The notes: generated by a model not told the origin, from the sequence alone. A stretch of 64,000 nt of DNA from a candidate division WOR-3 bacterium (GCA_965649205.1 CBFGJV010000006.1:26015-90014), one strand, 5' to 3'. Shown: positions 1,793 to 61,002, counted from the stretch's first letter. Numbers and translations: made by a program.

Positions 1793-2419
1793 TTATCGGA
1801 TCAGACGCAACCAGTCGTGCAGCAGGAAATAGAAACGGCCTATCAAAAGAGAAATGCGGGCCATCACTGTGTAGCCGAAAGACGCACCGAAAGCCACCAT
1901 GATGAATATGATACCCACACGCGACACCACACCCAAAGCCCCTTTGTGCTCTCGAGAAAAATAGAAATAGAACAACGTGGCTACGACTCCGACATACACT
2001 ATAAAATTGTTTACCGTGATAAGTGGCCGCAAAGTATCGGAAATCTGTGGCAACAGATACCCCTGCACCGCCGCCACCAAGCCCAGCCCGGAGCCTATAC
2101 CTACAGTGAAAGAAATCGGCCAGCGGGAAATCCACTCTGACTTGGGAATAGACCGACACAGCATCATAATGCCCAGAATCGTCGGCACAACTAGTATCCA
2201 GGCCTCCCAGTAGTTACCCTGGGCCAGGTTAGTCCGAAATGCATCAACCAACATAGGATAGACATCAAAGGCCCAAGCATAGATAACCGCAAAACCAGCA
2301 GAAGTTCCCACATAGATATGTTCAGCCACCTTGTAAAAAGGATTGTCTTTGTAGAGAAAGGAAAGAATAGCCAGAGTCAAAGTAGCCGCCACCCAAGTAC
2401 CAATGATGTTCAGCAACAT
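1793..2419 (-). CDS. Hypothetical polytopic membrane protein (gene 4 of the uncharacterised envelope cluster)
   Basis: 208 aa with at least 5 hydrophobic spans. No recognisable motif. Tightly packed with the three upstream genes on the same strand. Confidence 0.6.
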   Translation of the reverse strand: MLLNIIGTWVAATLTLAILSFLYKDNPFYKVAEHIYVGTSAGFAVIYAWAFDVYPMLVDAFRTNLAQGNYWEAWILVVPTILGIMMLCRSIPKSEWISRWPISFTVGIGSGLGLVAAVQGYLLPQISDTLRPLITVNNFIVYVGVVATLFYFYFSREHKGALGVVSRVGIIFIMVAFGASFGYTVMARISLLIGRFYFLLHDWLRLIR

Positions 2420-2501
2420 AAGTCAAGAATCATACATAAGGTAGCAGGCGAACCAAAAATGGACGCATCCTTAGTTCTTCTGTGCCTGCTCACCCTGGGC
2501 T

Positions 2502-3335
2502 TCACTTTCGCCTCCTGGACAATAAAAATCCCACATTGCCGATAACCAGCAGCAAAAGAATGAGGCCATGCGCAGCAGATTGAGCCGGCATTCCCAGGGT
2601 TGCAGAACCCGCCTTTTCCACCAGAGTCTCGTATTCAGACGCTCCCTGCAGTCCGCCGATTAGGCCCTTGATCTGACCCGAATGTAAATACTGGTAGAGA
2701 TTAGGCGCATTCACGCCTGTACAGCCCACTATGATAGTCTGGTTGAAACGACCTCCCACGTATTGAATCCAAGCGTCAGCGACGGCTCCGTGCGCAAGAC
2801 TGACCAGTAAGCCGATATCCTTATAGTTATGCACTGAGCGCATAAAGGGAAAAGAATCTATCGGCACACCCCGGTAGTCAGTCCGGAAGTAGTCTCTTAT
2901 TTCCCGGCCGATGCCAACCATCATCGCGGTGAATCCGGGACGGTAACCAAGATTGACATAGTCTTCCCCGTACTCTTTTCCCATCTGGGGAGCCACCTCG
3001 GCCAACGCCATCTCGGCCAGAGGCAGACCCAGCGCCAGCTGTCCCATAACAACAACCTTGTGGCCTTTGCGGAAAGCATGCCGCAGCAGCGCCACAAGCA
3101 TCGGCTGTACTTCCGGGGCGGAGGAAGGGTCGTAATCAATAGAAATCATTATCGCCGAACCGGCCGGAAGCTGCTCCACTGCATTAAATGCACTCCGTAC
3201 CGGCTCAGAAACACGCACCCGGGTTTGGGGCTTTAGAATCAAGGGAACTGCCACAGACAGAGCAAGCAGAATATACAGAATCCTCCGGTCCACATTTGCT
3301 AGACGACTCCAGAATTCCTTCATTGCCATTCTCAA
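2502..3335 (-). CDS. Hypothetical bitopic protein with N- and C-terminal TM helices and a ~200-aa soluble domain (gene 3 of cluster)
   Basis: 277 aa. Has an N-terminal TM (ILYILLALSVAVPLIL) and a C-terminal TM (GLILLLLVIGNVGFLL). Overlaps the upstream gene by 4 nt, consistent with translational coupling. Confidence 0.6.
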   Translation of the reverse strand: MRMAMKEFWSRLANVDRRILYILLALSVAVPLILKPQTRVRVSEPVRSAFNAVEQLPAGSAIMISIDYDPSSAPEVQPMLVALLRHAFRKGHKVVVMGQLALGLPLAEMALAEVAPQMGKEYGEDYVNLGYRPGFTAMMVGIGREIRDYFRTDYRGVPIDSFPFMRSVHNYKDIGLLVSLAHGAVADAWIQYVGGRFNQTIIVGCTGVNAPNLYQYLHSGQIKGLIGGLQGASEYETLVEKAGSATLGMPAQSAAHGLILLLLVIGNVGFLLSRRRK

Positions 3336-4033
3336 GACATATAGGTCCGCTCGATACCAAGGATTATGCGCAAAGACATGGCAATACCGCCCAGCGCTAA
3401 ACCTATACCGATACCCCGGACCGCAGCTGCTGTGACAATAGACATAAGCCAGTCCTTGACCACCGCAAACAATTCTAGTCCGGCGAACTTGTCTGTTTCC
3501 AGACCGGGAATCATCAATCCGACCAGCTGGCCGATGCCCCGCCAGATGGCACTACCCAAGGGCACATTTCCGAGCATAACGAAACACGCCGCCACGAGCA
3601 ACAGAGTGGCGGCGAAATTGCGCACCCGAAAGGCTCTATACGCTGCCGAAACGATAAAAAAAGCCAGGCTGGCAAACATTGTCGCCTGCAGCGGCATTAT
3701 CACATAAGTGTAAAGCCACATGAAAGGAGCGCGCAAAGCAAACGGACTCTGGAAACGTATCCAGGAATAGAAACCCAACCCCATCGTCACAAACAAAGAC
3801 AAAACAAGCATCAGACTGTATGGCCAACCTTCCCTGCGCCGCCACACTCTGTTCAGGTGATGTCGCACCAACGAATCCAATCCTAAAAGAAAAGTGAAGC
3901 CCGATACTATCGCATACCAGTTGAGAAACCTGGATTCCAAGTCGCCAAACGGACGGTGGGGAATAGAGAATGCCACAATGAGCAGAAGCGCGGTAACAAA
4001 AACAATCAGAAGAGGGATATTCTTTTTCAACAT
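3332..4033 (-). CDS. Hypothetical polytopic membrane protein (gene 2 of cluster)
   Basis: 233 aa with about 6 TM spans. No known motif recognised. Confidence 0.6.
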   Translation of the reverse strand: MLKKNIPLLIVFVTALLLIVAFSIPHRPFGDLESRFLNWYAIVSGFTFLLGLDSLVRHHLNRVWRRREGWPYSLMLVLSLFVTMGLGFYSWIRFQSPFALRAPFMWLYTYVIMPLQATMFASLAFFIVSAAYRAFRVRNFAATLLLVAACFVMLGNVPLGSAIWRGIGQLVGLMIPGLETDKFAGLELFAVVKDWLMSIVTAAAVRGIGIGLALGGIAMSLRIILGIERTYMS

Positions 4034-4062
4034 AACCGGAATCTGAAAGTATCCATCTGGCC

Positions 4063-5217
4063 TCAGTAAGCTGGCGTTGCCCAGCGCACCACAGTCTCAA
4101 ACGCTTTTTGTAGCCAGGGGGCCTGCTGTTGCAGGATTGACGCCCCAGTTCCCAGCAGCACTACGGCGGTAATGAAAACAATCAGCCAGAAACGGATAAA
4201 GTCCTCTCCCTTGAGTGTACCCAGCATCACCGGTTCCGGCCGCAGATAACAGGAGGCCGCGTAAATCTCCTCGCCTATCATGGTATAGTCGCACGCAGCA
4301 ACGAAAAAAGGCAGCTGAGTAGTCTCGGTTGTACCCGCCAGCTGAATCGCCCCTACTGCATGACCGGTTTCAGCCATAATCAGCGACTCGGCGTAGAAGT
4401 AACCCAGCCAGAATATCGCTCCCGGCTTTTCCCGCAGAATAATTCCATCTACTCCGGCAGCGTATCCAAACTGATCAGAAGTCAGGAAGGTAATATTGTC
4501 CGGATTGTAGAAATCCGGCCGACCCATTTCGGTATAGGCTTCCTTGACCGTCTCCTGAGCCGCCGTCATTACTATCGGGTCAGAGTTAGGCACCAAAAGA
4601 CGGGTGGCATATTCCGCTGACTTCATTGCCACCTTGCGCAACAGGGGCAAAGCGGCTATGACCACCATATCCGTGATATAGCCCAGCCCAAAACTGAACA
4701 ATATCGGCCGTCCCATCTCCGTCGCCCGACCCAGGGCTTCATCAATCGCATCCAGACCGGCTATCTTGCGCACGTACATCTTCGCGCCCCTGCGTGCCCG
4801 GTAGATGTAAAAAAGAAACAAAGCAGAAATCGCCAAAGTCAGAACCAATATATTCATACGGCTGGAATTGAACCACTGAGCAGAAGGAACTACCGGTCCG
4901 ACCACAGCACTGGCTACTGAGTCGCCGTCAACAAGCATAAGCACGTAATAGTAATAAGAACTTCCATCCCGCAACGAGGAATCTGTATCAACAATCTCGG
5001 AACTCGCAGCCGGTTCCTCTGCAATCAGTACGAAACCCGTATCTGGTTTCTCTGACCGAAAAATCTTGTATGTTTTTACGGAAACAGATTCGGCGTTCAC
5101 AGCTTCCCATGTCACCAGTATTGCTCTCCCCTGGTCATTGGGATTATCCCTGGCTGAAACGGAAACGGATAATGCCCCCCAAAGGCCCTGCAGGAAGAGC
5201 AGCATAACCGTGAGCAT
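4063..5217 (-). CDS. Hypothetical exported/membrane-anchored protein with an FN3-like N-terminal ectodomain (gene 1 of cluster)
   Basis: 384 aa. Layout is signal peptide, a beta-rich ~110-aa segment (VSVKTYKIFRSEKPD...SSYYYYVLMLVDG), a TM, a ~230-aa domain, then a C-terminal TM. Confidence 0.6.
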   Translation of the reverse strand: MLTVMLLFLQGLWGALSVSVSARDNPNDQGRAILVTWEAVNAESVSVKTYKIFRSEKPDTGFVLIAEEPAASSEIVDTDSSLRDGSSYYYYVLMLVDGDSVASAVVGPVVPSAQWFNSSRMNILVLTLAISALFLFYIYRARRGAKMYVRKIAGLDAIDEALGRATEMGRPILFSFGLGYITDMVVIAALPLLRKVAMKSAEYATRLLVPNSDPIVMTAAQETVKEAYTEMGRPDFYNPDNITFLTSDQFGYAAGVDGIILREKPGAIFWLGYFYAESLIMAETGHAVGAIQLAGTTETTQLPFFVAACDYTMIGEEIYAASCYLRPEPVMLGTLKGEDFIRFWLIVFITAVVLLGTGASILQQQAPWLQKAFETVVRWATPAY

Positions 5218-5273
5218 AATTAGGCTACAATCCTAATACTGCTCTTTCTGCTGTCAAATTGTGAACTGTGAAC

Positions 5274-6032
5274 TCAGGCTTTCCGCCCACTATATCCTTC
5301 CGTCCGGTCTGCGGACCTGGCCAGTTCCTCAAATTTCTGCCGCATCTCAGCGTTAATGCGTTGCACCTCTGCGCGCAGACAAGGCCCGGAATTACAGAAA
5401 TCTTTTCTGGGATAAATCGGATCTCCAACCAAAATCTCAATCTCGGTATTGAAAAGGTTTTCGGCCACAGAAAGAAAACCGGTCCAGCACTCCGTCCATA
5501 CTGTAGTCTGAACTACTCGGCCGGCGTACCTCAGATTACGTATATACACCGGCAATACTGGCGCGCCGGTACGTGCCGCCAGATACGCGGCACCGTCCTT
5601 GATATCCCTGACTTGGCCGCTCAGGTTGAAAGTACCCTCCGGGTAAATACCCACACACCCACCCAGCCGCAGAACCTCCATACACCTCCGCACTCCTCCT
5701 ACATTGTACCACGGCTCTCCCGTTTCCACTGGAAACGCATCACATATATTGCGCATTATAAAACGGGAAAAAGGACCCCGAAACCATCGGCTGGAAGCTG
5801 CAAAGAAAAGCCTGGTACGCAGAGCTATCTGCAGTATGACCGAATCTGCCCCATTGAGATGGTTGGCTACAACTATAAATCCTTTCCGCAAGAGCACCGT
5901 AACGCGACCAACCACCCGGACGCGAACACATAAACTGTAGATGACCAAGAGCAGCTGTTTGATACGAGTCCAGACCGTAGCACGCACCAGCTGCAACCGG
6001 GACCGCTCTGAAACAGACATGGACCGCCGCAT
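5274..6032 (-). CDS. plsC: 1-acyl-sn-glycerol-3-phosphate (lysophospholipid) acyltransferase, PlsC family
   Basis: Contains the HX4D motif (ANHLNGADSV) and the YPEGT motif, which together are diagnostic of the LPLAT/PlsC family. Confidence 0.8.
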   Translation of the reverse strand: MRRSMSVSERSRLQLVRATVWTRIKQLLLVIYSLCVRVRVVGRVTVLLRKGFIVVANHLNGADSVILQIALRTRLFFAASSRWFRGPFSRFIMRNICDAFPVETGEPWYNVGGVRRCMEVLRLGGCVGIYPEGTFNLSGQVRDIKDGAAYLAARTGAPVLPVYIRNLRYAGRVVQTTVWTECWTGFLSVAENLFNTEIEILVGDPIYPRKDFCNSGPCLRAEVQRINAEMRQKFEELARSADRTEGYSGRKA

Positions 6033-14906: not shown

Positions 14907-17165
14907 ATGCCTTGGTTCCTGCTGCTGCTTTCCAGTCAAACTCCTCTCACGAGCCCCGGAGTACTGATTTTCTCGGACACCGTTTTCTACGGCGGTAAAT
15001 TGGTACGTTTCTACAGCCGCACGGAAGAAGTGGTACTTTTGGATTCTGCCTGGGTCCGGTATCGGGATATGACTGTGTATTCTGATTCCATTCACTACCA
15101 CGTGGGAAAACACAGATTGACCGCAACCGGAGACGTACTCTTTGTCGCCGGCGAACAGAATGTCACCGGTTCCCTATTGCAGTATGATATTGACACCCGC
15201 AAAGGCTGGATGCGACAGGCACGCACCCGGGTAGAAAATGGTTTTTTCTGGGCCAGGGAACTCTGGCTGGTAAAAGAAAGAGTGCTGCACGCCCGCACCG
15301 GTTATTACACAACGTGTGATCATTACCCTCCTCATTACTATTTTCTGGGTCCGCGCACCAAGTTGCTTATGCATGATGTGGCTATCGCTGAACCCGTGGT
15401 GTTGAAGATTCTTGGTATGCCGGTACTGGCTGCTCCCTTCTGGCTGGTACCAGTCTCAGAAAAGCGTAAGTCAGGACTCATGTCCTTCAAAGTAGGAAAC
15501 GCCAAAGACCAGGGACTGTATGCCAAGAATCTGGCTTACTACTGGGTCATAAACGACTACGCAGACGCCACTTTCTACTGCGACGTAATGACCCGAAAAG
15601 GAATCCAGCCGCGGCTGGAGGCTGTGTACATAGTGAACCCCTATGCCCGCGGCTCTCTGCAAGGTTCTTTCATCCAGGAGTGGGATACCCGACGCAGACG
15701 GTACAGCGTAAACGCGGCTCACAACTCGCGCTTTTTCTTTGGTTCCGAACTGGCCGCCAAGGTTGACTACATCTCAGACCGCTCCTATGCGCCCGATTAC
15801 GCCGAGGAAAGATTGGAATGGCTGAAACAGGACGTACTGTCTTATGCCGAACTCGTACGCAGTTTCGGTCGTACCGCTCGAAGCTCAGCCCGAATTGAGT
15901 ATCAAAATGACTTCGCTCGCCATCGTCGTTTCATCAGCTTGCCCTCCGCCCGAGTAAGTTTCAGCGCTCGACCTCTGGCTGGGGGCTGGACGGCGAGCCC
16001 CAATCTTTCCGCCACAAACCTAATTTCGGTGTACTCTGATTCCCTCGGCAATGATACGGCGACGGTTGTCAACCGCAACGGAAAAACCAGCTTGGGAATC
16101 TCCAGCCCGCAGTATTCTTTAGCCCAGTTCGGCAATCTGAGCCTTTCCTGGGATTTGAGCTTGGCCGAGATGCGCTCTTGGCGCAATAGTCTGATCGCCT
16201 CCGCTTCCCGGCCGGCCACGCTTGGTTTCAACCTGCAGACTTCCCAAAAACTGGCCGGCTCTTTCCAGTTCTACGAAGACCTGAATTTTTCGCGCACCGA
16301 TAACCTGCTTGATTCAACTGCAGCTCCACCTGATTACTCGGCTTCACTTTCTTCCAGCTTCTCACTGTTCCGCATCTATGCTCTTGAAGCACTCGGACTT
16401 TACGGTGTCCTGCACACCGCTCGCCCCCTTATTCAAATTCGCTACTCACCGCAAGTCACAAGTTCCGGCTTCTTTGGTCGGTTGACCCCTCTCAACCCCG
16501 CAGCCGCAGCCGTCGATTTGGCCTTAGACAACGGATTTGAAGCTAAAACCGGAAAAGAAAAAAGCAAGTTCGACCTTGGTCGGCTAAGCCTGAACACAAA
16601 CTATGACCTGTTAAGCGGCAAATTGTCGCCGCTGCGGGCCGATGTCGCTGTTACACCCCTCAGTTTCGTGTCTGGCCTCCAGCTCCAGATAAACGCAGGA
16701 ACGAGCTTGAACTTTGCTACAAGACGTGTGAGCGAAGACTATTCATTTCTGACCACTTTGAACTGGAACAAAAGCGTATCCTGGAGACAAGCACGGCAAA
16801 CTCCGACAAACAAAGAAGAGTCGTTGCCCAAGTCGCCTGATTCTTCTCCTCCAGCTCCACAGCCCGGCATGGACATCGGGGTGAGCCTGAACTACGTTCT
16901 GACCAGAACCAGCAATATGCTTACCGGTAACATAACCATCTCTTTTCCCGGCTGGAAAGTTTCCGTAGGTAGTTTTGGTTACAACTTCGCCACCTCTCAA
17001 CTCACCAACTACAGTCTGACTATCTGGAAAGACCTACACTGTTGGGAGGCTATCGGAGAGCTGCGCAGACTTGGCAACAGATGGACCTACGATTTTCAGG
17101 TGCGTATCAAACTGTTGCAGGATGTGAGATTCAGCAAAAGTATGTTTGGTGCTTTCCTTCCATGA
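14907..17165 (+). CDS. lptD: LPS-assembly outer-membrane protein LptD (OstA family)
   Basis: 752 aa. An N-terminal OstA-like jellyroll is followed by a long beta-barrel region with alternating hydrophobic residues and a C-terminal aromatic residue (…FGAFLP). Confidence 0.6.
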   Translation: MPWFLLLLSSQTPLTSPGVLIFSDTVFYGGKLVRFYSRTEEVVLLDSAWVRYRDMTVYSDSIHYHVGKHRLTATGDVLFVAGEQNVTGSLLQYDIDTRKGWMRQARTRVENGFFWARELWLVKERVLHARTGYYTTCDHYPPHYYFLGPRTKLLMHDVAIAEPVVLKILGMPVLAAPFWLVPVSEKRKSGLMSFKVGNAKDQGLYAKNLAYYWVINDYADATFYCDVMTRKGIQPRLEAVYIVNPYARGSLQGSFIQEWDTRRRRYSVNAAHNSRFFFGSELAAKVDYISDRSYAPDYAEERLEWLKQDVLSYAELVRSFGRTARSSARIEYQNDFARHRRFISLPSARVSFSARPLAGGWTASPNLSATNLISVYSDSLGNDTATVVNRNGKTSLGISSPQYSLAQFGNLSLSWDLSLAEMRSWRNSLIASASRPATLGFNLQTSQKLAGSFQFYEDLNFSRTDNLLDSTAAPPDYSASLSSSFSLFRIYALEALGLYGVLHTARPLIQIRYSPQVTSSGFFGRLTPLNPAAAAVDLALDNGFEAKTGKEKSKFDLGRLSLNTNYDLLSGKLSPLRADVAVTPLSFVSGLQLQINAGTSLNFATRRVSEDYSFLTTLNWNKSVSWRQARQTPTNKEESLPKSPDSSPPAPQPGMDIGVSLNYVLTRTSNMLTGNITISFPGWKVSVGSFGYNFATSQLTNYSLTIWKDLHCWEAIGELRRLGNRWTYDFQVRIKLLQDVRFSKSMFGAFLP

Positions 17166-25199: not shown

Positions 25200-27542
25200 C
25201 TACGGAAGGACTAAGAAACTAACTTCCTCACTAGTATGCCCTGCCGCCAATAATCGCAACCTGTGTTTACCCGGTTCCAGACGCCAGAAGCAAGCATAAG
25301 GAGGCCCAACTACGGCCAATTCTCTTTCATCGAGTATCCATCTTGCTTCAGTAGCGCCGGCAGGTACAACCGCTCTGAAAAGAACTGCCTGAAATTCCCG
25401 GCTAAGGTCGGGGTCAATCTTGAACACATCTCCTTCGTCAGGGAAAAGCACAACCGGCTGTGAGCAAACTGTACGTGCCTGAGTTTGAGTTAAACCCGTC
25501 ACCGGAGGCAACGGCAAACCGTTGTCCGCCATCCAGGCCCAGTACTCCGGAGGATATACCTCATATACCTTATCCTGTATTAACAGATGAACCGAGCAAG
25601 TTTCTCTGGGCAGTCTGGAAGCAATGAATTTTTCCTGTACCGCTGCTGGACAATGTGGACCCGGGATTAAACCAGATTTGGGACACACCGCACACAACAC
25701 TATACCCGGAGGAAGGTCAAATCCGGAAGGCGAGCGTGTTTGCGCTGCCAGCATCACATCACGAAAAAGCGGACCGGCTCCTGTTACGCCCGAAACCCGG
25801 TGCATCGGCGAACCATCAAAGTTTCCCACCCATACACCTACCACATAATCGCGGGTGTAACCTACAGCCCAATTGTCCCGGTAATCCTTGGAGGTACCGG
25901 TTTTAACCGCACAAGGAAAAGGTAATGACAAACATGAGAACTGTCCAAAAGCGGGTGCACGTGCCTGATTATCGCAAAGAATATCTGTCACCAGATAAGC
26001 AGATTGGGGACTGAATACGCGAATCTGCGATCCACCAGTCCGCAATCCTGTTTCTGGTTCCGCATCAGACATTATCACCCGCACCTCTGAAAACTCTCCG
26101 TAGTTTGCCAGAACACGATATGCGTTTACCAGCTCCAGCAAACGTACATCACCCACCCCCAAACTCAGAGCCAAACCATAATAACCAGGTTCCCTCCGCA
26201 AACTGGTCAACCCACACTGACGAAGAACAGTAAGCAGACGGTCAACCCCCAGCTCCTCAGCAAGCCTCACGGCCGGAACATTGTAAGACGAACCAAGTGC
26301 CACCCGGCAACTCACAGGACCGCGAAATTGTCGGTCATAGTTACGGGGCACAAAATCGCCGGCCAGTTCTGCAAAATGGCCAGGCAAGTCAGGTACTATC
26401 GCGGCTGGAGACTTTTCCTGTTCAAATGCAAGGGCGTAAACAAAAGGCTTCAACGCCGAACCTGGCTGCCGCAGGCTCAAGCAAGCATTCACCTGCCCGG
26501 CATCCGGGGAAAAATAATCCCTTGAACCTACCATGGCCAAGACCTCCCCGGTAGCACGATCAAGAACCACGACAGCAGCGTTGGTAACGTGGTAGGAAGC
26601 AAATTGCCGCAGATGCACCTCAACCAAATCCTCACACTGCTGCTGAAGTCGGTAGTCGAGGGTAGTACGGAGCAGACGTTCTCTACCTCGCCAAGCTCCC
26701 TTTGGAAGACCTGTAGAAAGAACAAAATCAACGAAATGAGAGGCTTTGAATGGCCTGCGAGGACGACATGGTGTAATGCTTTCAGCCAACGCCGCCTCAA
26801 AATCAGAAAGTTTTATCCGGCGCCGTGCCAGCAGATTTTCCAAAATCCACCGTTGTCTTCGGCGACACCTTTCAAAGTGACGATATGGGTCACACTCTCC
26901 AGGTGAACGCAGCACTCCAGCCAGGAAACACGCCTGCGCCAGCGACAAACGGTCAGCGCTTCGATTGAAATAGGTCCGGGCAGCAGCATCAATACCATAG
27001 AGTTGGTTACCGAACCAGACCCGATTCACATACGCTTCCAAAATCTCCCGCTTCGACAAATGAAGTTCTAGGCGTATTGCACCAAGCAGTTCGCCCAGTT
27101 TTGTCGCTATTCCCCGTCGCCCAGAATGACGCAGAACACGCACAAGTTGCTGGGTGATAGTTGAACCCCCTGACACTACCCGACCTGCCCGCAGATTTGT
27201 CAGCGTGGCACGCACCAAAGCCAGCAGATCCACTCCACAATGACGCCAGAATCTTCTGTCTTCCGCGACTATTACCGCTTCCACAAACCAAAGACTCACC
27301 TGGTCAAGTTCCACCCAGTGGTTCACGCCATATTCGGAAGAACAGACTTCCCTCAGTGGTTCTCCTCTGCGGTCGGTAACTACCAGTGTAGCCAGTTGCT
27401 CCCCGCGTACGTAGCTGCGGCTCAACGGCAATAACAAGAATAAACCAACGCCCAGCCATAACAGCTGAACTATACTACACCCTACGGCTAGGACTCCGAT
27501 GGTAACTGTGTGCCTAGCTGCGGTAAATTTTACTCTCCTCAC
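25200..27542 (-). CDS. pbpC: Penicillin-binding protein 1C (bifunctional glycosyltransferase/transpeptidase)
   Basis: N-terminal TM, GT51 motifs (EDRRFWRHCGVD, GGSTITQQL), a transpeptidase domain and a C-terminal PBP1C-type extension. Its start codon directly abuts the stop of the alpha-2-macroglobulin gene. Confidence 0.85.
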   Translation of the reverse strand: MRRVKFTAARHTVTIGVLAVGCSIVQLLWLGVGLFLLLPLSRSYVRGEQLATLVVTDRRGEPLREVCSSEYGVNHWVELDQVSLWFVEAVIVAEDRRFWRHCGVDLLALVRATLTNLRAGRVVSGGSTITQQLVRVLRHSGRRGIATKLGELLGAIRLELHLSKREILEAYVNRVWFGNQLYGIDAAARTYFNRSADRLSLAQACFLAGVLRSPGECDPYRHFERCRRRQRWILENLLARRRIKLSDFEAALAESITPCRPRRPFKASHFVDFVLSTGLPKGAWRGRERLLRTTLDYRLQQQCEDLVEVHLRQFASYHVTNAAVVVLDRATGEVLAMVGSRDYFSPDAGQVNACLSLRQPGSALKPFVYALAFEQEKSPAAIVPDLPGHFAELAGDFVPRNYDRQFRGPVSCRVALGSSYNVPAVRLAEELGVDRLLTVLRQCGLTSLRREPGYYGLALSLGVGDVRLLELVNAYRVLANYGEFSEVRVIMSDAEPETGLRTGGSQIRVFSPQSAYLVTDILCDNQARAPAFGQFSCLSLPFPCAVKTGTSKDYRDNWAVGYTRDYVVGVWVGNFDGSPMHRVSGVTGAGPLFRDVMLAAQTRSPSGFDLPPGIVLCAVCPKSGLIPGPHCPAAVQEKFIASRLPRETCSVHLLIQDKVYEVYPPEYWAWMADNGLPLPPVTGLTQTQARTVCSQPVVLFPDEGDVFKIDPDLSREFQAVLFRAVVPAGATEARWILDERELAVVGPPYACFWRLEPGKHRLRLLAAGHTSEEVSFLVLP

Positions 27543-30500
27543 TCACTTAATTTCTAGATACTGCTGACCAGTGTGGCCAAAAACCTCAGGTGTATACATT
27601 TCCTCCACCCGCGTGGGTGGAAGGAAAAATCTGCCGCTTGTAAGCGCTCTAACCCGATAAGTCTCCGTGTGCACACCCTTGGTAAGGTAAGTAGCCACCA
27701 GAAGGTAACGGTCATGGTATGTTTCTTCGTAGTTAAAGCCGCCCCACCACTGTTTGTTCGATTTCGTAGAAAGAGGTTGAGTCTGACGTTCAGTGGCAAA
27801 GGAAGTATTAACTATCTCCCAGCCCGCAGGCAGAGGGTCGTCCAGCACCACAAATATCCGGTCCTGAGCAGTGTGTACTTTCAAAGTTATGATATACTCT
27901 GCTCCGCGTACGTAACCTGATACCTTGCCCACGGGCCTGATAACTTTCTCTACTCGGAATCCCTGATCCTTGGCCTTTAGCTCGCCCTTGCGGGCATAAT
28001 AAAGCCTGAGTCCATAATACATTCTGCCCTGTCCCTTTCTGCTGATGTTTACTGGCAAGGTCGTTTTTGCCAAACTATCAATCGGCAGGAAACGACGAGC
28101 AGTCTTCAACGAACGACCAGAGAATACTGCACTGAGCACGTCTTTACCTGCAATCCTGACTGAAGCTCTGAAATTCGGCCTCTCCTTTTCATACGTGCGG
28201 TAGAAAGTTGCCAACGCATCAAAAACACAGGCATTTTCTTGGGTCGTACGCCAACGGCCAACCCTACGCTCCGCAATCAGCCACCTGACTATTTTCTCTG
28301 CAAACTCAATCTGCCCTTGATGTTCTAGTAGCGCTTGCAGTACCACAGCCGTGGTTCGCACATCTGAATGAAACAGCCATCCTCCTTCTCTTTCTTCCTC
28401 ATAGTGTGCCATAGTCGGCTCGAGCTTGAGTTTGTTATTCATCGCCCGTATAAGATTACTCCTTGCCTCCGCATATACAGACTTAGGAAGCAAAGCTAGC
28501 GTCTTCAACAGGTATGCTTTACCATACACTGACATTTGGTCAACTTGGTCAAGCAAGAAAGGTAGGTGAGATTCTACTTTCTCCCCCCATAGCGCAATTG
28601 CATACACAGCCAGACTGCGGGCAGTGAGATACTCATCTGTTGAATACGGCCAGTCTGTCCCACGTTTACCGTAGTTGAGCCAGTTCGTCAGGTAACTCTT
28701 GCCTCGCTCGCTAACCCGGGAAGCCACTTGGAAACCCTTCTTCTCTGCCAGTGCCAGAACGTACATGGTATAAGCTGAAAGCCAAGGAGAAGGCTTTTCG
28801 TAGGCATAAGACTCGAGGTCTGGCCAGAAGTAAAAGCCGCCAGATTCATCCTGGTATCTGCTTACCACATCCAATTCAGCCTGCACAAACTTACGCAAAG
28901 CCGAGCCCCGCAACTCAGACAAACCAAATTGGTTTATCACATCCTCCCCGACAATAAAAGGCAGTATTTTGCTCATCCGCTGCTCCAGACATTCATAAGG
29001 ATACGTACGCAAGAATTCCAGCCCTCTTTCCAGTCCTGTGAGTCCCGAAGAAGAAACTGCAACCTCCAGCCCCCCGACTCCCGCAAAGACGTCAGGCGGC
29101 ACACTCACCGTCTGTTGTATCACTGAATCCATTGTCTGCTCGTACAGAGCCACTGCTTCTGAAACTACAGAAGGTATTGCTGGCAAAGTTACACGCAACC
29201 TGTCCCTTGCTCCCTCCCCACTCGCCTCAAAGGTAAACTCTGCCTCGCCTGCACCGATACAAAGGTAGTCAAACACAACTTCCACAGGACGGTTCGGCTC
29301 TACTTCCACTTGCCGACTTGTACTGCCATCAATCCTCACTCCCTTGGCAGCTGTTGCTTTCACCGTAACTTTCATCTTCTTGTCAGTGCGATTGTGCACC
29401 ATTACGCCGGCCGAAAAACGGTCCTCAGGCCGTATGAAACGCGGTAAAGAACTCACCAGAAGCAGCGGTTTATTAGTCTGAAACTTGCTTTCGCCCGAAC
29501 CAAACTTGTCAACTGTTGCCGCCACGGCCATTATCTGCCAAGTGGTGAGATTATCTGGCACACGAAAACGGACACGAGCTCTGCCGTTCTCATCGCTTCT
29601 CAAAGACGGTATCCAAAGCGCCGTTTCGAGAAACTTCTGCCGGTAGGCATAATCATACCCACCATCAAGCCCTACCCCATCTAATCCGCCACCACCTGCA
29701 GCCTCACCTTTCTCACCGTAATTGCGCTGACCAATCACATGCAGCCTGGACTCAGCTGTTACCACCGAAAGAGATCGAGAGGCGTAAAACATACTGAACG
29801 GATCCGGCGTCCTGTAGCCAACCAGCTTTAAGACGCCAAGATCAACGACCGCAAGCGATACTTCTGAGCGAACTCCTCTACCTTTCTTGTCCAAGACTTG
29901 CAAGTCAATTTCTACCTCCTGCCCTGGCTGGTACTCGGTCCGCCCCGTTTTCACAACCACCGTCAACTTCTTGGCTTCCGGATCAACTGGCAACTCTACA
30001 TATCCAATCTTGAAGCCCGGTTTACCCAGGTCCTGGCCTTCGTCTCCAAAGCTGTTATAGGCAGTTCTCCCTTTCAGCAGAACTACCGAAACAAATACGT
30101 TGGGAAGATACTCTTCTTTTATCGGTATTCTGATCAAATCCGCATTGCCGCTAATCTCTGTTCCAAAGTAGTCCAGTACCAGCTCCCGCTCAACCGTCAC
30201 CATAGCCTTAACCCCGGTCCACGGTGATTTTACAAGTATCTTCGCAGTATCGCCTGGCTTATAAGCATTCTTATCCCTCACCAACTCAATCAGGTCGTCA
30301 TCTCGTATCATCCACGCAGCTTCGCCCTTGCCTGCAACCCAGAACTCCAGATCGGTTCTCGCAGTATTATTCCGTCTGTCTCTCATTTCACACTTGCACC
30401 AGTATTGACCTGGCTTGTCCGGTCTGAACCACTTGCGCACCGCTTCGGACTCTGTTCTGACCTCGAAAGTGGCTACTTTCTCGTCTACTTTCTCGCTCAA

Positions 30501-33197
30501 CCAAGAATACCTACCCCCGGTCTGAGCCTTACGCGCCGAACGCCATATCCGCCGGAACACCGTAACCGTCACGTTTTCACCACTGGCTGGTCTACCGTCT
30601 GGGAACGCAGCCACTAAATCTAAACCTACAGAATCACCCAGTTCTACCATACCCCTGGTCATCTTTACGCCTACATAGCGTTCTGCTCGGTGGACGATAT
30701 ACGATTCTCGACCGGTAATACTCCTCTGGTTAGTGGCAGTAACCGTCGCTTCGCAGGTCACACGACAGCTGGAAAGCCGCCTCCCTAAATTCAGCTTAGT
30801 TTGTACCTGCAAATGCCCCTGGACGTCTAATTTGCCGCTCCCTGAACTCAGCAGACTTATTGCTTGTTCAGTCTCATCCATGTACGCGCCCCAGCTGAAC
30901 CCTTCGTATCCGGGAGGCGAGAAAGACGTAGGTTCCAAACTCACCGTCCAATCCACCTGTTCGCCTGCCATCTGAGCTCCAAACAGATATCTGGCGTTGA
31001 TATGCGCCGTGAACATGTCACCCGCAACATAGCTATCTTTGTCGCCCTTTACTGTGACTTCGAACTCTGCTGGCCTGTATGCCTCAACCCGAAAATGTCC
31101 ATAGAATTCGTGCTCACCCTGAGAAAAAACAATACTGTAGTAACCGGTGAAAGCCTCTGCCCCCAGTGGCAAAGAAATATCAAAGCTACCCCAGTCAGAC
31201 AATCTCACCCGCCGGGTGAAAATCTCCTCATCCCGCGAATCTGTTACTCGTACCAACCCATCCCTGCGACTGGGAATAATCCACCTGCCTCGCTGCTTGT
31301 GGCGGATAATACCCTTAATGCGAACCGTATCCGCCTGTTTGTACAGCCCCTTTTCGGTGTAAATGAAGCCCGAAGGTTCGGTAGGGTCAGGAGACCAATC
31401 ATAGCTCACGCCAAGCTCATAAGGATGAATTCCAGTGCCCCATTCCGAATGCACAAAACCTTCTCCTCCCGGTTCCCGGACAAACATCCACAAACGAGGA
31501 CTATCCCACTCGCTTCGCGCCTTAACACCCAGCATAGCCCATCCAGGGAACACCACAAACCCGTTCTTATCCGTGCGACCAGTCCAGACGGACCGGTTGG
31601 CATCATCTCGCAACTCAACTGTGACTCCTGCTACAGGTGCGCCGTCAACCAGACGAGTCACATAACCTAGCCCGTTTTCTGGTGAAAACTTTGCTGTCAG
31701 CCCAAACGGTGATACCTGCAGAAAAGCTCGACGATACCTTGCACCCCGTTCTGGTTGGTGAAGCATATCCAGTTCACAGAACAAAAAGCCGGATTTCCTT
31801 CCTCCTAATCCGGGCGCTATATCCAGAGGCAGTAGCGTACGTCTGTTCCTGACCAGCTTTGGTCTCCAAACAGTCTGATAATTAAAACCGGTCTGCCAGA
31901 TTCGCTCCAATTCGCCAGGCTTCTCTTTCTCCTCCTCCCCATGACCTTCGTACCGCTTCCGCCAGAAGGGAATAACTTCCCCGGCCTCCAGCCTCCTCAT
32001 CCTTACCTTCACTGATTCTACATTCACCATCCATACCGGATGACGCAACTCTGTGGCAGACTCCACAATACCCAAACCAACAGGCATACCCAGGGCTGGG
32101 CGATAGGAGACTGTCTTCAGTCGCAAACGGACGTCTTTACCCAGGCGATTGCCAAAACGGTCAGTAAGCTGGCGGGAAAGAATTACCTCGTACTGCGTCT
32201 CTGGAGCAAGTTCTACATAGAGGTACTGCTGCGTGGTTGCAAAATCATATTCGTACCGAGGCAACTTCACTGGAGGAGAGAATTTCACGTGCCTGAGTAA
32301 CTCTTCTTGCGCTACAGGATTGGAAAAAACAAATACCAGCGGATCTTCCGGGTGATGAGCGGACGCCCTCTCCAATCTTTCCAGCCGAAAGTGATTGAAG
32401 GTACGAAACTCTATTCTGCGTTCCTTCTCTAATCCCAAGTTGCCCTCAGCCGCCAATAATCCCTCCGCCAGGATAATCTGGTACTGAGTCTGTTTTCTCA
32501 ACTGCACTTTCGAGGTAAGCACTAACACCGAACTAAGTTTTTCTGGTTCATACCACCATGCATCTTCCGTTCTCTCCTTGGGTCTTGGATGACGGAGTCG
32601 AAAAGGCACCCTGGTTCCGTCGCCCGCCACCAACTGCAGAAATTTCTGGGCACGTTTTGGGTCCATCGGCATGTTAAAGTGAAGCCAGATGTTTGGCTTG
32701 AGTGTTACAAACTCCGCACCATGAAAGGGAACAGAATATTCCAGGCTAGGTCTCACAGTCTCAAACTCAAACTCGTAGTCCTGCTTGAGCATCCGTCCAC
32801 TCAACGAACGGACGCCTCGCGGTATTTTCACTTTAAATCTGGTCGCTGTGGGTAGAACAGTCGCCGGGCGAAAGACGACAGTATTTGGACTCAACCAGTC
32901 ACAAAAACCTGGGACTTCCGGGTCAAGGAGCAGTGGAAAATTCTCCTCCTCAGAGACTTCGCCAAGAGACACCATGGCATCATCGAAAGTCACCAGGATT
33001 TCGCTTGCCTCTTCTGTTTTCTCCAGCACCCCTACGGGTGTCGCAGCCACAATCCGCAGAGAATCGGCCCGACGCAATTCCTCTTCACTAAATACAGGCA
33101 TCGCTACACGCCGAGCCAAGGGCTGTCTAGGTTTCTCGCGGGGACAACTACCGACAACAACTAGGACAGCGCACAGAACCCATGCTCTTGTCCTCAC
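27543..33197 (-). CDS. yfhM: Bacterial alpha-2-macroglobulin (YfhM/ECAM-like) with intact thioester motif; probable lipoprotein
   Basis: 1884 aa. Contains the CLEQ thioester motif (…TYPYECLEQRM…). The N-terminus (VVVGSC) is lipobox-like. GTG start with AAGGAGGA SD. Paired with pbpC as in Proteobacteria. Confidence 0.85.
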   Translation of the reverse strand: MRTRAWVLCAVLVVVGSCPREKPRQPLARRVAMPVFSEEELRRADSLRIVAATPVGVLEKTEEASEILVTFDDAMVSLGEVSEEENFPLLLDPEVPGFCDWLSPNTVVFRPATVLPTATRFKVKIPRGVRSLSGRMLKQDYEFEFETVRPSLEYSVPFHGAEFVTLKPNIWLHFNMPMDPKRAQKFLQLVAGDGTRVPFRLRHPRPKERTEDAWWYEPEKLSSVLVLTSKVQLRKQTQYQIILAEGLLAAEGNLGLEKERRIEFRTFNHFRLERLERASAHHPEDPLVFVFSNPVAQEELLRHVKFSPPVKLPRYEYDFATTQQYLYVELAPETQYEVILSRQLTDRFGNRLGKDVRLRLKTVSYRPALGMPVGLGIVESATELRHPVWMVNVESVKVRMRRLEAGEVIPFWRKRYEGHGEEEKEKPGELERIWQTGFNYQTVWRPKLVRNRRTLLPLDIAPGLGGRKSGFLFCELDMLHQPERGARYRRAFLQVSPFGLTAKFSPENGLGYVTRLVDGAPVAGVTVELRDDANRSVWTGRTDKNGFVVFPGWAMLGVKARSEWDSPRLWMFVREPGGEGFVHSEWGTGIHPYELGVSYDWSPDPTEPSGFIYTEKGLYKQADTVRIKGIIRHKQRGRWIIPSRRDGLVRVTDSRDEEIFTRRVRLSDWGSFDISLPLGAEAFTGYYSIVFSQGEHEFYGHFRVEAYRPAEFEVTVKGDKDSYVAGDMFTAHINARYLFGAQMAGEQVDWTVSLEPTSFSPPGYEGFSWGAYMDETEQAISLLSSGSGKLDVQGHLQVQTKLNLGRRLSSCRVTCEATVTATNQRSITGRESYIVHRAERYVGVKMTRGMVELGDSVGLDLVAAFPDGRPASGENVTVTVFRRIWRSARKAQTGGRYSWLSEKVDEKVATFEVRTESEAVRKWFRPDKPGQYWCKCEMRDRRNNTARTDLEFWVAGKGEAAWMIRDDDLIELVRDKNAYKPGDTAKILVKSPWTGVKAMVTVERELVLDYFGTEISGNADLIRIPIKEEYLPNVFVSVVLLKGRTAYNSFGDEGQDLGKPGFKIGYVELPVDPEAKKLTVVVKTGRTEYQPGQEVEIDLQVLDKKGRGVRSEVSLAVVDLGVLKLVGYRTPDPFSMFYASRSLSVVTAESRLHVIGQRNYGEKGEAAGGGGLDGVGLDGGYDYAYRQKFLETALWIPSLRSDENGRARVRFRVPDNLTTWQIMAVAATVDKFGSGESKFQTNKPLLLVSSLPRFIRPEDRFSAGVMVHNRTDKKMKVTVKATAAKGVRIDGSTSRQVEVEPNRPVEVVFDYLCIGAGEAEFTFEASGEGARDRLRVTLPAIPSVVSEAVALYEQTMDSVIQQTVSVPPDVFAGVGGLEVAVSSSGLTGLERGLEFLRTYPYECLEQRMSKILPFIVGEDVINQFGLSELRGSALRKFVQAELDVVSRYQDESGGFYFWPDLESYAYEKPSPWLSAYTMYVLALAEKKGFQVASRVSERGKSYLTNWLNYGKRGTDWPYSTDEYLTARSLAVYAIALWGEKVESHLPFLLDQVDQMSVYGKAYLLKTLALLPKSVYAEARSNLIRAMNNKLKLEPTMAHYEEEREGGWLFHSDVRTTAVVLQALLEHQGQIEFAEKIVRWLIAERRVGRWRTTQENACVFDALATFYRTYEKERPNFRASVRIAGKDVLSAVFSGRSLKTARRFLPIDSLAKTTLPVNISRKGQGRMYYGLRLYYARKGELKAKDQGFRVEKVIRPVGKVSGYVRGAEYIITLKVHTAQDRIFVVLDDPLPAGWEIVNTSFATERQTQPLSTKSNKQWWGGFNYEETYHDRYLLVATYLTKGVHTETYRVRALTSGRFFLPPTRVEEMYTPEVFGHTGQQYLEIK

Positions 33198-51605: not shown

Positions 51606-53765
51606 TTGAACAAAGTGCTGACCGCGGTCCTGCTTACTGCTGGTGTGCTGCTAACAGCCGCACAGGGTAACCTGTTGACCAATGGCGACTTTGAACAGCC
51701 GCTCACGGTCGGCTGGAGCCAAGAGTTTGATGATAGCCAGGGGTCATACGTAATCACCCGTGATACAACACTGCAACCAGACCCGGATTTCGAAGTGCGC
51801 ATATATAAGTACTTGCGCTACTACGCCAGGTTGAAACAAACAGTAGCCGTGCCTGGTACAAACGTGCGTTTCTCTGGCGCGGCCAAACTGGTTGCCACTA
51901 AAGGTCCGACCAGCGGTTACTATGCCTATGCTGCCATAATTCTGGAATATCAGAACGCCGGCGGAGAAGTTCTGGGCCGTACCTGGATAATGAAAAAGAT
52001 AGGCGACTTCAATCCCCAGAATACCCCCACTCAGCACTACATACTGACTATAAGCGATGTTTGGGAGAACTACGGTTTTGTTCTCGCTGATGAGTTAGCC
52101 AATCTGCCAGGCATCAACCCCCGGGATATTTCCCGGGTAAGTGTCGTTGTGGAAAGCTACGGCACCGGCGCTTCAGGTTGAGGGGGATGTGAAACCACGA
52201 CGGAGGTCTCCGCCGATGACATAGCCCTCACATACCTGGGCGCTGCTCCATTTCTCACCTACCAGTCAAACACAATTATTGACCCGCCACCCGGAAGAAA
52301 TAACAACGGCCGATTTGATCCGGGCGAGAGCGGCGATATACGTGTGAAAGTGAAGAATGTAGGCAACCAGGAGGCACACACTGTCACCGCAGTTCTGCGG
52401 TCAGGGCATGATCTGTTTGTCGTCACCGACTCTACCGGTAGTTTTGAAGACATACCAGCCGGTGGCAGTGCTGAGAACGATGCGGACCGGTTCTCAATTC
52501 AAGTCAACAGCAGCATGCGTCCCGGCACGACAGTCCTCTGCACCCTCCTGCTGCACTGCGAGAACTGGGGATACGACTGGAAGTATGTTTTCACCCTCCA
52601 GGTAGGCACGGCACCGCGGCCAGGCCAATACGTGGTTACGCTAGATACCGGCTCAGTTTCGCTTTCAGTCTGTGCCATAGGCTCGCTGGGCTTCAACGAG
52701 CCTGGCGGAACTGGTAACGGCTTCCGCGTGCCCAAGACCGTCGCCAACACTCTTTACTATGGTAGCATAATGGCTGGGAATTCAGACGCCTATCTGGTTG
52801 ACCACTTCTTCTCGCGACCTGCTTCTGGTCCCACACACAAGGACTGGGCGATGGAAGAGAGCTTCAGGTTCATATTCCCCGGTTCACCGGCAGATATGCA
52901 CTGGATGAACACAATGAACGATGCAGGTCACACTTCGCCCCGCCGGCTGCGGACAGAGCAGCACTGGTATATGAATGCCAATCCCACTAATTCCAACTGG
53001 ACAGTTGTAACGCTGGAACTGAAGAACGACGGCACCAGCCCGCTGAATGAAATGTACGCCGGCATCATAGGCGATTTTGATGTTGGGTCTTCGCCTACGA
53101 CCAATATTGTCGGTTCAGATGAAACCCGGCGTGCGATCTGGATGGCACAGGCCACAAGCGAAAACCCCACAGTAGGCTTTGTTCTCCTGGACCCGCCGAT
53201 GTTCGCCAACCTGACTGCGGTAGACCACGCGCGCTATGTGTATCCTGATTCGGCTATGACCGATGGTATGAAGTGGCGTCTGCTCAATGGTACCATCTCT
53301 TTACGTCAGTCTAATCGCAGCTATGACTGGTCAGTGCTGGTCTCGGCCGGACCGTTCAACCTGCCAATTGGTTCAAGTCAGAAACTGGCCTTCGCAGTTG
53401 TAGGAGCAACAAGCCGGGCCGGCTGGTTTGCCGCGGTCGAGAGCGCGCAGAAGTGGTACGACGCTAACCTGGTAGGTGTAGAGGAAGAAAAACCGTGCCC
53501 TGCCTACATCGAACAGTCTCTGCTACTTCGGCCCAATCCTTTCTCTCGTGCCACTTACGTGTACTACTTCGCACCGACAGCATCCCGCGTATGCCTGTCC
53601 GTGTATGACATCTTGGGCCGGGAAATAGAACGAACGTATTTTGATGCTGGTGCAGGCGTAAACCGCTACGTCTGGCAACCTAAAAACGTTACTCCTGGTA
53701 TCTACTTCGTGAAAGCGACCACACCAAACCACGAAACTACAGCTAGAGCTCTTCTGCTGGAATAA
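51606..53765 (+). pseudogene. T9SS cargo protein (CBM4/9-like N-domain, CARDB-like middle, Por C-terminal sorting domain) interrupted by a single in-frame TGA at 52179-52181
   Basis: The ORFs 51606-52181 and 52344-53765 are in the same frame. The frame reads open across the gap, and the translation remains protein-like (…GESGDIRVKVKNVGNQEAHTVTAV…). Signal peptide with an NLLTNGDFEQP N-terminus. The C-terminus (LLLRPNPFSRATYVYYFAPT…GIYFVKATTPNHETTARALLL) matches the T9SS CTD. Confidence 0.7.
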
Positions 53766-59523: not shown

Positions 59524-61002
59524 ATGGACAGACGCATAACTGTTGACCCGATTACACGACTGGAAGGACATGGAAAGATAGAAATCTTTTTGGACGAGCA
59601 CGGCGAGGTAGACAACGCCTATCTCCAAGTTCCTGAACTACGTGGTTTCGAGCAGTTCTGCGTGGGCAGGAAGGCTGAAGATATGCCCCAGCTTACCTCA
59701 CGCATCTGTGGTGTCTGTCCGGTCGCCCACCACTACGCTGCTACCAAGGCACTGGATATGGCCTTTGGCGTAGAACCAACCGCAACCGCAAGGAAGCTGC
59801 GCGAGCTCATCTACGCCGGTTATATCATCTATGATCACATTTTGCACTTCTACTTTCTGGCCGGGCCGGATTTTGTGTTAGGACCGGACGCACCCAAGGA
59901 AAAGCGGAATATCCTCGGTGTTATAGAAAAAGTAGGACTGGATGTGGCAAGAGAAGTAATTAAGCACCGAGCCTATGGTCAGAAGATAACAGAGATTCTC
60001 GGGGGCAAACCAACCCATCCTGTGTCGGGCGTTCCCGGAGGCCAGACCAAATCACTAGACGAAGATGGACGGAAGCAAATAGAAGAAATGGCGAAGTCCT
60101 GCGTAGCATTCGCTGAATTCAGTTTGGAGCTTTTCCGCAAGACGGTATTGGAAAACAAACAGTATATGAACCTTGTCACTGACCCCCGTTTCAGTCTCAA
60201 ACTGTACAATATGGGTCTTGTAGACGAGAAGAACCGGGTGAACTTCTACGACGGCAAAGTACGCGTAACTACCCCAAACGGTGAGGAGTACCTCAAATTT
60301 GAGTTAAAGGATTACCTGAAGCATATCCGGGAACACGTTCTGGAATGGAGCTATGTGAAGGTACCTTACCTTGCGGCAATTGGCTACAGGGGACTCACTG
60401 ATGGCCCGGAATCTGGCATCTATCGTGTAGGACCTCTAGCTCGCTTGAATGCGGCCGAAGGAATGGCAACACCCAAAGCAGATGCTGCATACCGAGAAAT
60501 GTACAACACTTTCGGCACCAAACCGGTACACTCTACGCTTGCATTCCACTGGGCTAGGCTTATAGAATTGCTCTACGCTTCCGAACTAGCGCTTGCACTT
60601 GCCTCGGACACCAACATCACCGGAACAGACATCCGCAATATGGACTACAAGATGCAGGAGCAGGGCATCGGCGTGGTAGAGGCGGCGCGGGGAACTCTGT
60701 TCCATCACTACTGGCTGGATGAAAACAGATTGGTGAAGAAAGTGAATCTGATTGTGGCCTCAACCAACAATATGGGCCCGATCTGTATGTCAGTCCGAGA
60801 CGCAGCAAGGAGTCTAATCCACGCCGGCAAGGCAGACGACGGACTGTTGAATACGGTAGAAATGTTCTTCCGTGCCTACGACCCGTGCTTTGCCTGTGCT
60901 AGCCACACCCTCGGAAGCGCACCGCTGGAAGTCAACCTGCGCCTCTCAGATGGCACATTACTAGAGACCCTGACAAACCAATCCAACCGGGATACACATT
61001 AA
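59524..61002 (+). CDS. mvhA: [NiFe]-hydrogenase large subunit, MvhA-like
   Basis: N-terminal RICGVC and C-terminal DPCFACASH Ni-Fe ligand motifs, plus RLEGHGKI. 492 aa. Confidence 0.88.

Follow-up and report, generated by a model that had tools for sequence, protein, structure and literature searches.

Closest described systems

The closest described systems to the element studied here, a set of four minus-strand genes (g1 to g4, numbered in transcription order) at positions 1793 to 5217 of a 64,000-nucleotide stretch from a candidate division WOR-3 bacterium (GCA_965649205.1 CBFGJV010000006.1:26015-90014; the whole stretch is called the window), are one catalogued domain family and several membrane machines that resemble the four-gene cassette in organization. 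The domain family is DUF6754 (PF20539), which every g1 relative carries at its C-terminus and which covers one of the four subunits only. Its entry gives no function, structure or paper, no paper naming DUF6754 or PF20539 was found in the library searched, and no description was found that covers the cassette context, its paralogous arrays or the ATPase trio presented below. DUF6754 is an uncharacterised catalogue family.

Na+-NQR and Rnf are alike in subunit sizes and topologies, and the N-terminal barrel-sandwich of T3, from a cytoplasmic trio (T1-T2-T3) encoded beside the cassette in other loci, weakly resembles RnfC_N or NqrA; in contrast to these complexes, the cassette shows no sequence relationship, no cofactor motifs and no conserved cysteines, and g1 has no counterpart. 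The inner-membrane platform of the type II secretion system (T2SS) and type IV pilus (T4P) combines the actin-fold PilM/GspL with bitopic PilN/O/GspM and polytopic PilC/GspF. The likeness lies in an actin-fold protein (T2, in many lineages) together with anchored periplasmic-domain proteins and polytopic subunits, whereas no pilins, secretin or hexameric ATPase were linked to the cassette, no family matches were found, and T2 falls in the GlmL branch rather than with PilM/FtsA.

ExbB-ExbD-TonB and MotAB are likewise small multisubunit inner-membrane modules with a periplasm-spanning arm of variable length, often in several paralogous copies. They differ in that the cassette showed no family match to them and no conserved membrane-embedded acidic residue, and true ExbB genes are separate neighbours in some cassette loci. 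Energy-coupling factor (ECF) transporters offer an organizational likeness only, namely one soluble module (T1-T3) beside one to three membrane cassettes, and the cassette differs from them in lacking an ABC ATPase and any homology to EcfT or the S-component.

Conservation of the four-gene cassette

A locus scan with one genome per species gave at least 588 loci, and synteny was analyzed in 82 loci from species-representative genomes by iterated hidden Markov model searches of six-frame open reading frames (ORFs). The 82 loci held 87 complete g1-g2-g3-g4 cassettes, always in this order and on one strand, from about a dozen phyla, with one cassette in 56 loci, two in tandem in 8, and three in 5. 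The g2 gene adjoined g1 in 77 of the 82 loci and g4 followed g3 in 71, the incomplete cassettes being explained by contig ends or N-masked stretches. In the gene calls of the relatives, the four genes overlap or sit 1 to 29 nt apart. The closest homologues of g1 and g3 were from candidate division WOR-3. The best 80 of the at least 588 loci came from WOR-3, Stahlbacteria, Zixibacteria, Ignavibacteria, Poribacteria, Fermentibacteria/Aegiribacteria, Cloacimonadota, Coatesbacteria, Edwardsbacteria, Latescibacteria, Eisenbacteria, Armatimonadota, and one metagenome-assembled genome labelled 'Deltaproteobacteria'.

The flanking genes varied by lineage and included a C25 peptidase with a type IX secretion system (T9SS) tail (locus L001), a two-component pair (L163), acyl-CoA dehydrogenases (L014), and DHQ (3-dehydroquinate) synthase in Poribacteria. 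In the window, the four genes lie between rimI and a plsC-like gene, as the initial annotation had described. Because flanks are not conserved between lineages, these two appear incidental, and their membership of the unit was rejected. The initial annotation had also proposed gene-neighbourhood conservation as a check and named a lack of synteny in related genomes as refuting; the constant order amid unrelated flanks speaks for its reading. From sequence comparison, the reading of g1 to g4 as a conserved autonomous operon is strongly supported.

The four proteins also appear to have evolved en bloc. Their distance matrices correlated for all pairs (r = 0.57-0.72, 75 cassettes) and still more closely for paralogous cassettes within a locus (r = 0.84-0.94). 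Mean pairwise identity across phyla was roughly 48-62%, a figure that gap handling inflates somewhat, and approximately 45-58% by a rough estimate for the DUF6754 part of g1. In a neighbour-joining tree of g3, each cassette of L051, L076, and L077, whether first, second or third in its array, grouped with its positional counterparts, which identifies the triple arrays of Zixibacteria and Ignavibacteria, on this sequence evidence, as ancient paralogues kept in order; the third cassette type in these arrays has a g1 without ectodomain. The triple array of WOR-3 locus L036 is a recent triplication. Double arrays were found in L010, L017, L025, L030, L037, L056, L073, and L079, and the window holds no second cassette.

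The alternative that g1 to g4 have nothing to do with each other, or that their order is a lineage-specific accident, could draw on the 82-nt spacer between g3 and g4 in the window and on three g1 genes that lack g2 to g4 despite available downstream sequence (L013, L021:5962-7041, and L082:5902-7035) and may be orphan or decayed copies. Chance adjacency is excluded because the order of the 87 complete cassettes is fixed across phyla with unrelated flanks and because the cassettes duplicate en bloc with correlated distances, so that this alternative is effectively refuted.

A DUF4388-domain protein gene overlaps the end of g4 in the WOR-3/Stahlbacteria clade (L014:9129-9995, plus strand, and likewise L016, L019, and L031), and another DUF4388 protein is encoded three genes after T3 in an unrelated locus (L095:7856-8488). 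A more distant lineage of WOR-3 encodes, on the same strand as g1, a gingipain-like C25 peptidase that carries a C-terminal T9SS sorting domain (L001:4499-7993 and L002:1-2595); the peptidase gene stops 8 nt before g1.

Architecture of the subunits

Topology was called from hydropathy and K/R counts, with no dedicated predictor. The g1 gene (4063..5217, minus strand; ORF of 384 aa) encodes a signal peptide at about residues 1-23 (5149..5217), recognized by its hydrophobic N-terminus and with the cleavage site placed by eye between SVSA and RD, followed by an exported FN3 domain at about residues 24-110 with an SSYYYY strand (4888..5148). Downstream (4132..4857) come, by hydropathy, a first transmembrane (TM) helix, TM1 (residues 121-139), a cytoplasmic alpha/beta DUF6754 part (140-342), and TM2 (343-362). 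The ectodomain is a seven-strand beta sandwich superposable on FN3 structures, and the positive cluster RARRGAKMYVRK stands directly after TM1. The architecture agrees with the initial annotation, which had listed a signal peptide, an FN3-like ectodomain with a YYYY strand, a TM helix, a domain, and a C-terminal TM helix.

The Pfam match to DUF6754 covers g1 residues 112-357 (E = 2e-107, 358.5 bits against a cut-off of 27) and spans model positions 2-247 of 257. A 32-sequence multi-phylum alignment of the domain had 28 invariant columns, many of them charged, including R150, R164, E167, R262, E277, E283, Q301, C309, D310, E316, E317, and D339. The AlphaFold2 (AF2) model of g1 was poor in DUF6754, with a predicted local distance difference test score (pLDDT) below 50 for residues 241-335, and the fold search with this model matched only the FN3 domain, because its DUF6754 part is unreliable.

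Homologues of g1 numbered 7010 in a word-indexed search and formed 2386 clusters at 50% identity in an exhaustive search. DUF6754 was always C-terminal in them, in whole proteins of about 300 to 1,341 residues, and the arm before it was variable, with one FN3 domain in the window and none, several FN3 repeats or HEAT repeats in relatives; the longest relatives examined had four to five FN3 stretches. An N-terminal signal or lipoprotein-type peptide was kept in all examined variants with apparently complete N-termini, the shortest forms beginning with a signal peptide and the HEAT-repeat forms with a lipoprotein-type one. Because these peptides are kept across the forms, the N-terminal region is predicted to be exported family-wide and DUF6754 to be cytoplasmic. 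Two relatives, P0281 and P0382, have long HEAT regions in place of FN3 behind lipoprotein-type signal peptides, and HEAT repeats of this type would be periplasmic, an unusual location. A scan for Rosetta-stone fusions in 390 proteins (150 g1 cluster representatives plus earlier g1 and g3 matches) found no g2, g3, g4 or T1-T3 segment in any of them.

The g2 gene (3332..4033, minus strand; ORF of 233 aa) encodes a membrane subunit with six hydrophobic segments, whose K/R-rich loops alternate in a 60-sequence alignment as in a predicted N-in/C-in protein. The g4 gene (1793..2419, minus strand; ORF of 208 aa) encodes a membrane subunit with five to six segments by hydropathy, again in a 60-sequence alignment. 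Between them lies g3 (2502..3335, minus strand; ORF of 277 aa from TTG), with N- and C-terminal TM helices enclosing a doubly wound Rossmann-like alpha/beta domain of about 210 aa (pLDDT 86, predicted TM-score (pTM) 0.80). Its C-terminal helix is followed by SRRRK, and because both termini bear K/R clusters, the domain is predicted to be periplasmic. All three topologies accord with the initial annotation, which had given six TM spans to the second gene, a bitopic form with a domain of about 200 aa to the third, and at least five spans to the fourth. Predicted helices number about 11-12 in g2 and g4 together and about 15-16 in g1 to g4. Homologues with E below 1e-100 ran from hundreds to thousands for g1 and g3, and about 95-100 each were found for g2 and g4 in the fetched loci, mostly at E of about 1e-74 to 1e-98.

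With an alpha/beta domain between two TM helices each, g1 and g3 are predicted 'clamp' subunits, whose domains would face opposite sides of the membrane, DUF6754 the cytoplasm and the g3 domain the periplasm. Homology of the two clamp domains was rejected (hhalign probability 1.5%), as was paralogy of g2 and g4 (0.3%). A C-terminal sorting signal on g3 was also rejected, the PEP-CTERM match having E = 0.54, and g3 was classed as a core subunit rather than cargo.

Cytoplasmic trio beside the cassette

Clustering of neighbouring genes revealed a cytoplasmic trio, T1-T2-T3, adjoining the cassette in about 14 of the 82 g1-selected loci (L011:2221-5789, plus strand; also L010, L012, L025, L038, L041, L054, L067, L073, L076, and L077). 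T1, of about 132 aa, has no family. T2, of about 605 aa, matches PF13941 'MutL', the GlmL-family actin-fold ATPases (E = 1e-125; 420.5 bits for the T2 of L011 against a cut-off of 27). Its score of 226.6 does not reach the NCBIfam cut-off of 475 for the GlmL equivalog, which makes T2 a member of the PF13941 family but no orthologue of the glutamate-mutase accessory protein. A literature search on PF13941 and membrane-linked actin-like GlmL found nothing. T3, of about 373 aa, has barrel-sandwich, alpha/beta, and KOW-like parts, with only weak RnfC_N (E = 3e-4) and Biotin_lipoyl barrel-sandwich matches and no PDB relative. Its family of at least 8000 proteins without assigned function, WOR-3 members included, is at least as large as that of g1, and some of these homologues carry precomputed RnfC_N or NQRA matches.

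In the reverse direction, 80 metagenome loci were selected through T3 (L083-L162). Cassette genes were found in 28 of them (32 complete cassettes). The g1 start lay at most 1.5 kb from the T3 stop in 19 of 67 loci with enough downstream sequence, and a cassette stood elsewhere in the locus in 7 further T3-selected loci. T2 preceded T3 in 41 of 57 assessable loci. Depending on the locus, the trio lies upstream on the same strand as the cassette, downstream on the same strand, or divergent, and such variable placement is better explained by a functional link than by frozen synteny.

Upstream of the trio, a small 2-TM protein of about 150 aa, here called T0, precedes T1 in 12 loci. Genes for the glycine-cleavage P-protein are found upstream of T1-T2-T3 and the cassette in about 11 loci, with an H-protein gene in about four (the glycine-cleavage/T0 loci are L010:212-2293, L012, L025, L038, L067, L088, L090, L098, and L115-L117). 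This neighbourhood may reflect a metabolic link, or no more than a gene order inherited from a common ancestor.

Comparison with known families and alternative readings

The initial annotation had found no motif of a known family in the four genes, which holds for g2, g3, and g4, none of which has a Pfam or NCBIfam family, and fails for g1 with its match to the uncharacterised DUF6754. Profile searches, proposed there as a check, agreed with its view: Pfam, NCBIfam, PADLOC, and PDB scans assigned none of the four to a characterised system. With all four proteins and their profiles, phmmer and hmmsearch of PDB sequences matched only FN3, and when 60 diverse members each of g2 and g4 were scanned against Pfam, with E values up to 1 allowed, the matches amounted to no more than scattered hydrophobic noise. 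The ABC, Mla, Lpt, Gld, and T9SS core sets had been set aside by eye, rightly as far as Pfam and NCBIfam matches for g1 to g4 go. No ABC_tran or ABC2_membrane match was found in g1 to g4, and the cassette has no ATPase gene; weak TMD0_ABC matches in 15 of the 60 g2 sequences (best E = 8.7e-5) were read as compositional. The LptD, LptC, and PorV-like genes present elsewhere in the window or in related loci are separate genes. No MotA_ExbB, ExbD/TolR or TonB family matched any of g1 to g4, including the 60 g2 and 60 g4 sequences. A defence role was rejected, no PADLOC anti-phage model matching g1 to g4 at E up to 1. Within reach of these sequence searches, the cassette fits no known kind, and only g1 belongs to a named family. 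Whether a deeper structure comparison would tie it to a known transporter, synthase or stator class seems to us about evenly balanced.

Several membrane systems were weighed as rival readings. A distant analogue of Rnf or Na+-NQR, in which g2 and g4 would correspond to NqrD/E (RnfA/E), g3 to NqrC/RnfG, and T3 to NqrA/RnfC, is suggested by two 6-TM proteins of about 200-230 aa beside one anchored protein with a periplasmic domain, sizes and topologies comparable to those of Rnf and NQR subunits, by the RnfC_N and NQRA matches of T3 and its homologues, and by a high conservation typical of bioenergetic complexes. Yet the Rnf-Nqr family (PF02508) was absent from the families listed as matches to the 60 g2 and 60 g4 sequences at E up to 1, no cysteine stood among the invariant or near-invariant columns of g2 and g4 where NqrD/E have those that hold their iron centre, g3 had a Rossmann-like model and no Pfam match, FMN_bind included, and no Fe-S or flavin motifs were found. 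The barrel-sandwich domain is, moreover, a common and non-specific fold, and we consider this analogy highly improbable.

The topology of g3 suggests a second reading, a machine for envelope polymers or lipids with DUF6754 as its catalytic part, g2 and g4 as flippase or channel, g3 as a co-polymerase- or transferase-like subunit, and FN3 guiding the product. Polysaccharide co-polymerases (PCPs) have a TM-domain-TM topology, which g3 shares with Wzz, DUF6754 has many invariant acidic residues, and the neighbours of the cassette include envelope or lipid genes in some genomes, such as the plsC-like gene in the window and the lipid A acyltransferase and glycosyltransferases neighbouring the cassette in L163. 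However, these flanks vary from lineage to lineage, no match to a glycosyltransferase, Wzz, Wzx or Wzy family was found, the g3 domain is alpha/beta and not a long helical hairpin, and the Foldseek matches for its Rossmann-type fold were at noise level (E no better than 1e-3). The cross-phylum identity of the cassette, approximately 45-60%, is also far above what polysaccharide machinery usually shows. The envelope-machine reading is accordingly held to be quite unlikely.

A self-sufficient secondary transporter is a somewhat less remote alternative, in our estimate still unlikely. Here g2 and g4 would form the permeation path, the periplasmic g3 domain would bind or gate, DUF6754 would be a cytoplasmic regulator, and the trio would be a mere metabolic neighbour. 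The number of predicted helices, the high conservation of the membrane subunits, and the occurrence of the cassette alone in most loci, the window included, would all suit it, and most phyla in the locus titles are uncultured candidate lineages, largely anaerobic and fermentative, in which novel uptake systems are plausible. It is opposed by the lack of any recurrent transporter-family match, even a weak one, in the 120 scanned g2 and g4 members, and it leaves the variable FN3/HEAT arm and the repeated linkage to the trio unexplained. A nucleotide-gated RCK role would make no sense for a g3 domain predicted to be periplasmic, and KTN/RCK (TrkA-N) was rejected for g3, which does not fit a cytoplasmic Rossmann domain with a glycine-rich nucleotide-binding loop after strand 1.

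Proposed working of the DUF6754 cassette

The best explanation as a whole, which we place just under an even call, is an obligate four-subunit complex of the cytoplasmic membrane from an undescribed family, here named the DUF6754 cassette. Its parts are held with different strength: g1 to g4 very probably form a conserved four-subunit complex of an uncharacterised family, whereas the likelihood that it works as a translocase or transducer, with an ATPase module coupled to it, is put well below even. It is possible, at somewhat below even confidence, that cassette and trio together represent an unrecognised class of modular membrane machine, common among FCB-related and further candidate phyla, in which an actin-fold ATPase drives one to three four-subunit units. 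The initial annotation had seen a dedicated inner-membrane complex with one exported partner; a conserved unit without characterised relative is what was found, and the exported partner, g1, stays anchored in the membrane.

The complex would carry a substrate, or transmit conformational work, from one side of the inner membrane to the other. Catalysis or docking would take place on the strongly conserved cytoplasmic DUF6754, the periplasmic g3 domain with its two anchors would be the receiving or handing-over site, and the FN3 arm of g1 would be a periplasmic spacer or adaptor. Because the trio is operonic with the cassette in many phyla, T1-T2-T3 may dock on the cassette and energise or feed it, and one soluble module could serve one to three paralogous cassettes.

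Several observations weigh against this explanation. The mechanism is drawn from architecture and neighbourhood because a relative of known function was detected for none of the subunits, and transport energised by an actin-fold ATPase is not known. The physical association of the four proteins is something that we infer, DUF6754 is not confidently modelled over the residues given above, and a conserved acidic residue inside the helices, a sign of an ion path, was not evident in the g2 and g4 alignments. The trio is absent from the 64-kb window. On an 827,070-bp WOR-3-type contig, taking two JGI records of equal length as the same contig, the cassette lies at 69-82 kb and T3 at 450-471 kb, approximately 380 kb apart, and this T3 has no T2 beside it. 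The link between trio and cassette may be facultative or lineage-specific, because more than half of the T3 loci have no nearby cassette and many T3 genes lie among housekeeping genes (accA, era, and lpxB).

Gene limits and other features of the window

The four ORFs were found at the limits given by the initial annotation, and two starts were revised. Because the 100%-identical database twin of g1 has 380 aa, g1 probably starts at 5205 rather than 5217, and because that of g3 (P0121, also 100% identical) has 273 aa, g3 probably starts at the ATG at 3323, giving 273 aa. The spacing of -4 to +30 nt stated there was right for g1-g2 (29 nt) and g2-g3 (-4 nt, or +8 nt if g3 starts at the ATG) and fails for g3-g4 (82 nt) because 2419 is the most upstream possible g4 start. 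In relatives, g3 and g4 overlap by 4 nt or lie 3 nt apart. The spacer of the window (2420-2501) contains a weak hairpin at 2484-2500 and is an inserted non-coding sequence, as g4 is full-length.

Downstream of g4, after 9 nt, lies rimI (1304-1783; TIGR01575, 106.8 bits against a cut-off of 86.4). The upstream flank of g1 is the gene for the PlsC-like acyltransferase (5274-6032; PF01553, with a score below the TIGR00530 cut-off). In the 56-nt gap between this gene and g1, a consensus scan found a tentative sigma-70-like promoter, TTGACA-16-TAGGAT (5230..5257, minus strand), matching at 10 of 12 positions, a consensus match only.

Elsewhere in the window, a bacterial alpha-2-macroglobulin gene (1884 aa) lies directly upstream of a gene for a PBP1C-type bifunctional penicillin-binding protein (780 aa) at 25200-33197 on the minus strand, a known periplasmic defence-and-repair gene pair. 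An LptD-like gene (14907-17165), a protein with a weak match, below the Pfam threshold, to a T9SS C-terminal sorting tail (52344-53765), an outer-membrane beta-barrel (54540-56243), and a NiFe-hydrogenase large subunit (59524-61002) are together consistent with a diderm, outer-membrane-bearing host.

Significance

The high identity across a dozen phyla indicates strong constraint, and a core envelope or bioenergetic task is therefore likely. The family is large: clustering at 50% identity gives about 2,400 groups, species-representative genomes contain at least 588 loci, and the cassette has been multiplied into ordered arrays. At 3.4 kb, the cassette is compact and tractable for heterologous expression, cryo-EM, and complex prediction, and should deeper structure comparison later tie it to a known kind of transporter or synthase, three protein families that now lack any family assignment would still gain an annotation.

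Most carriers are uncultured sediment or symbiont lineages (WOR-3, Zixibacteria, Poribacteria, and Fermentibacteria), and because reconstructions of their physiology depend almost wholly on gene annotation, a common machine without annotation is a blind spot in them. If the proposed working is true, substrate or mechanical work would be moved into the periplasm through FN3 or HEAT arms, and the cassette would be a new kind of translocase or motor of the envelope, with no relation to ABC, Sec, Tol/Ton, Rnf or secretion-system platforms.

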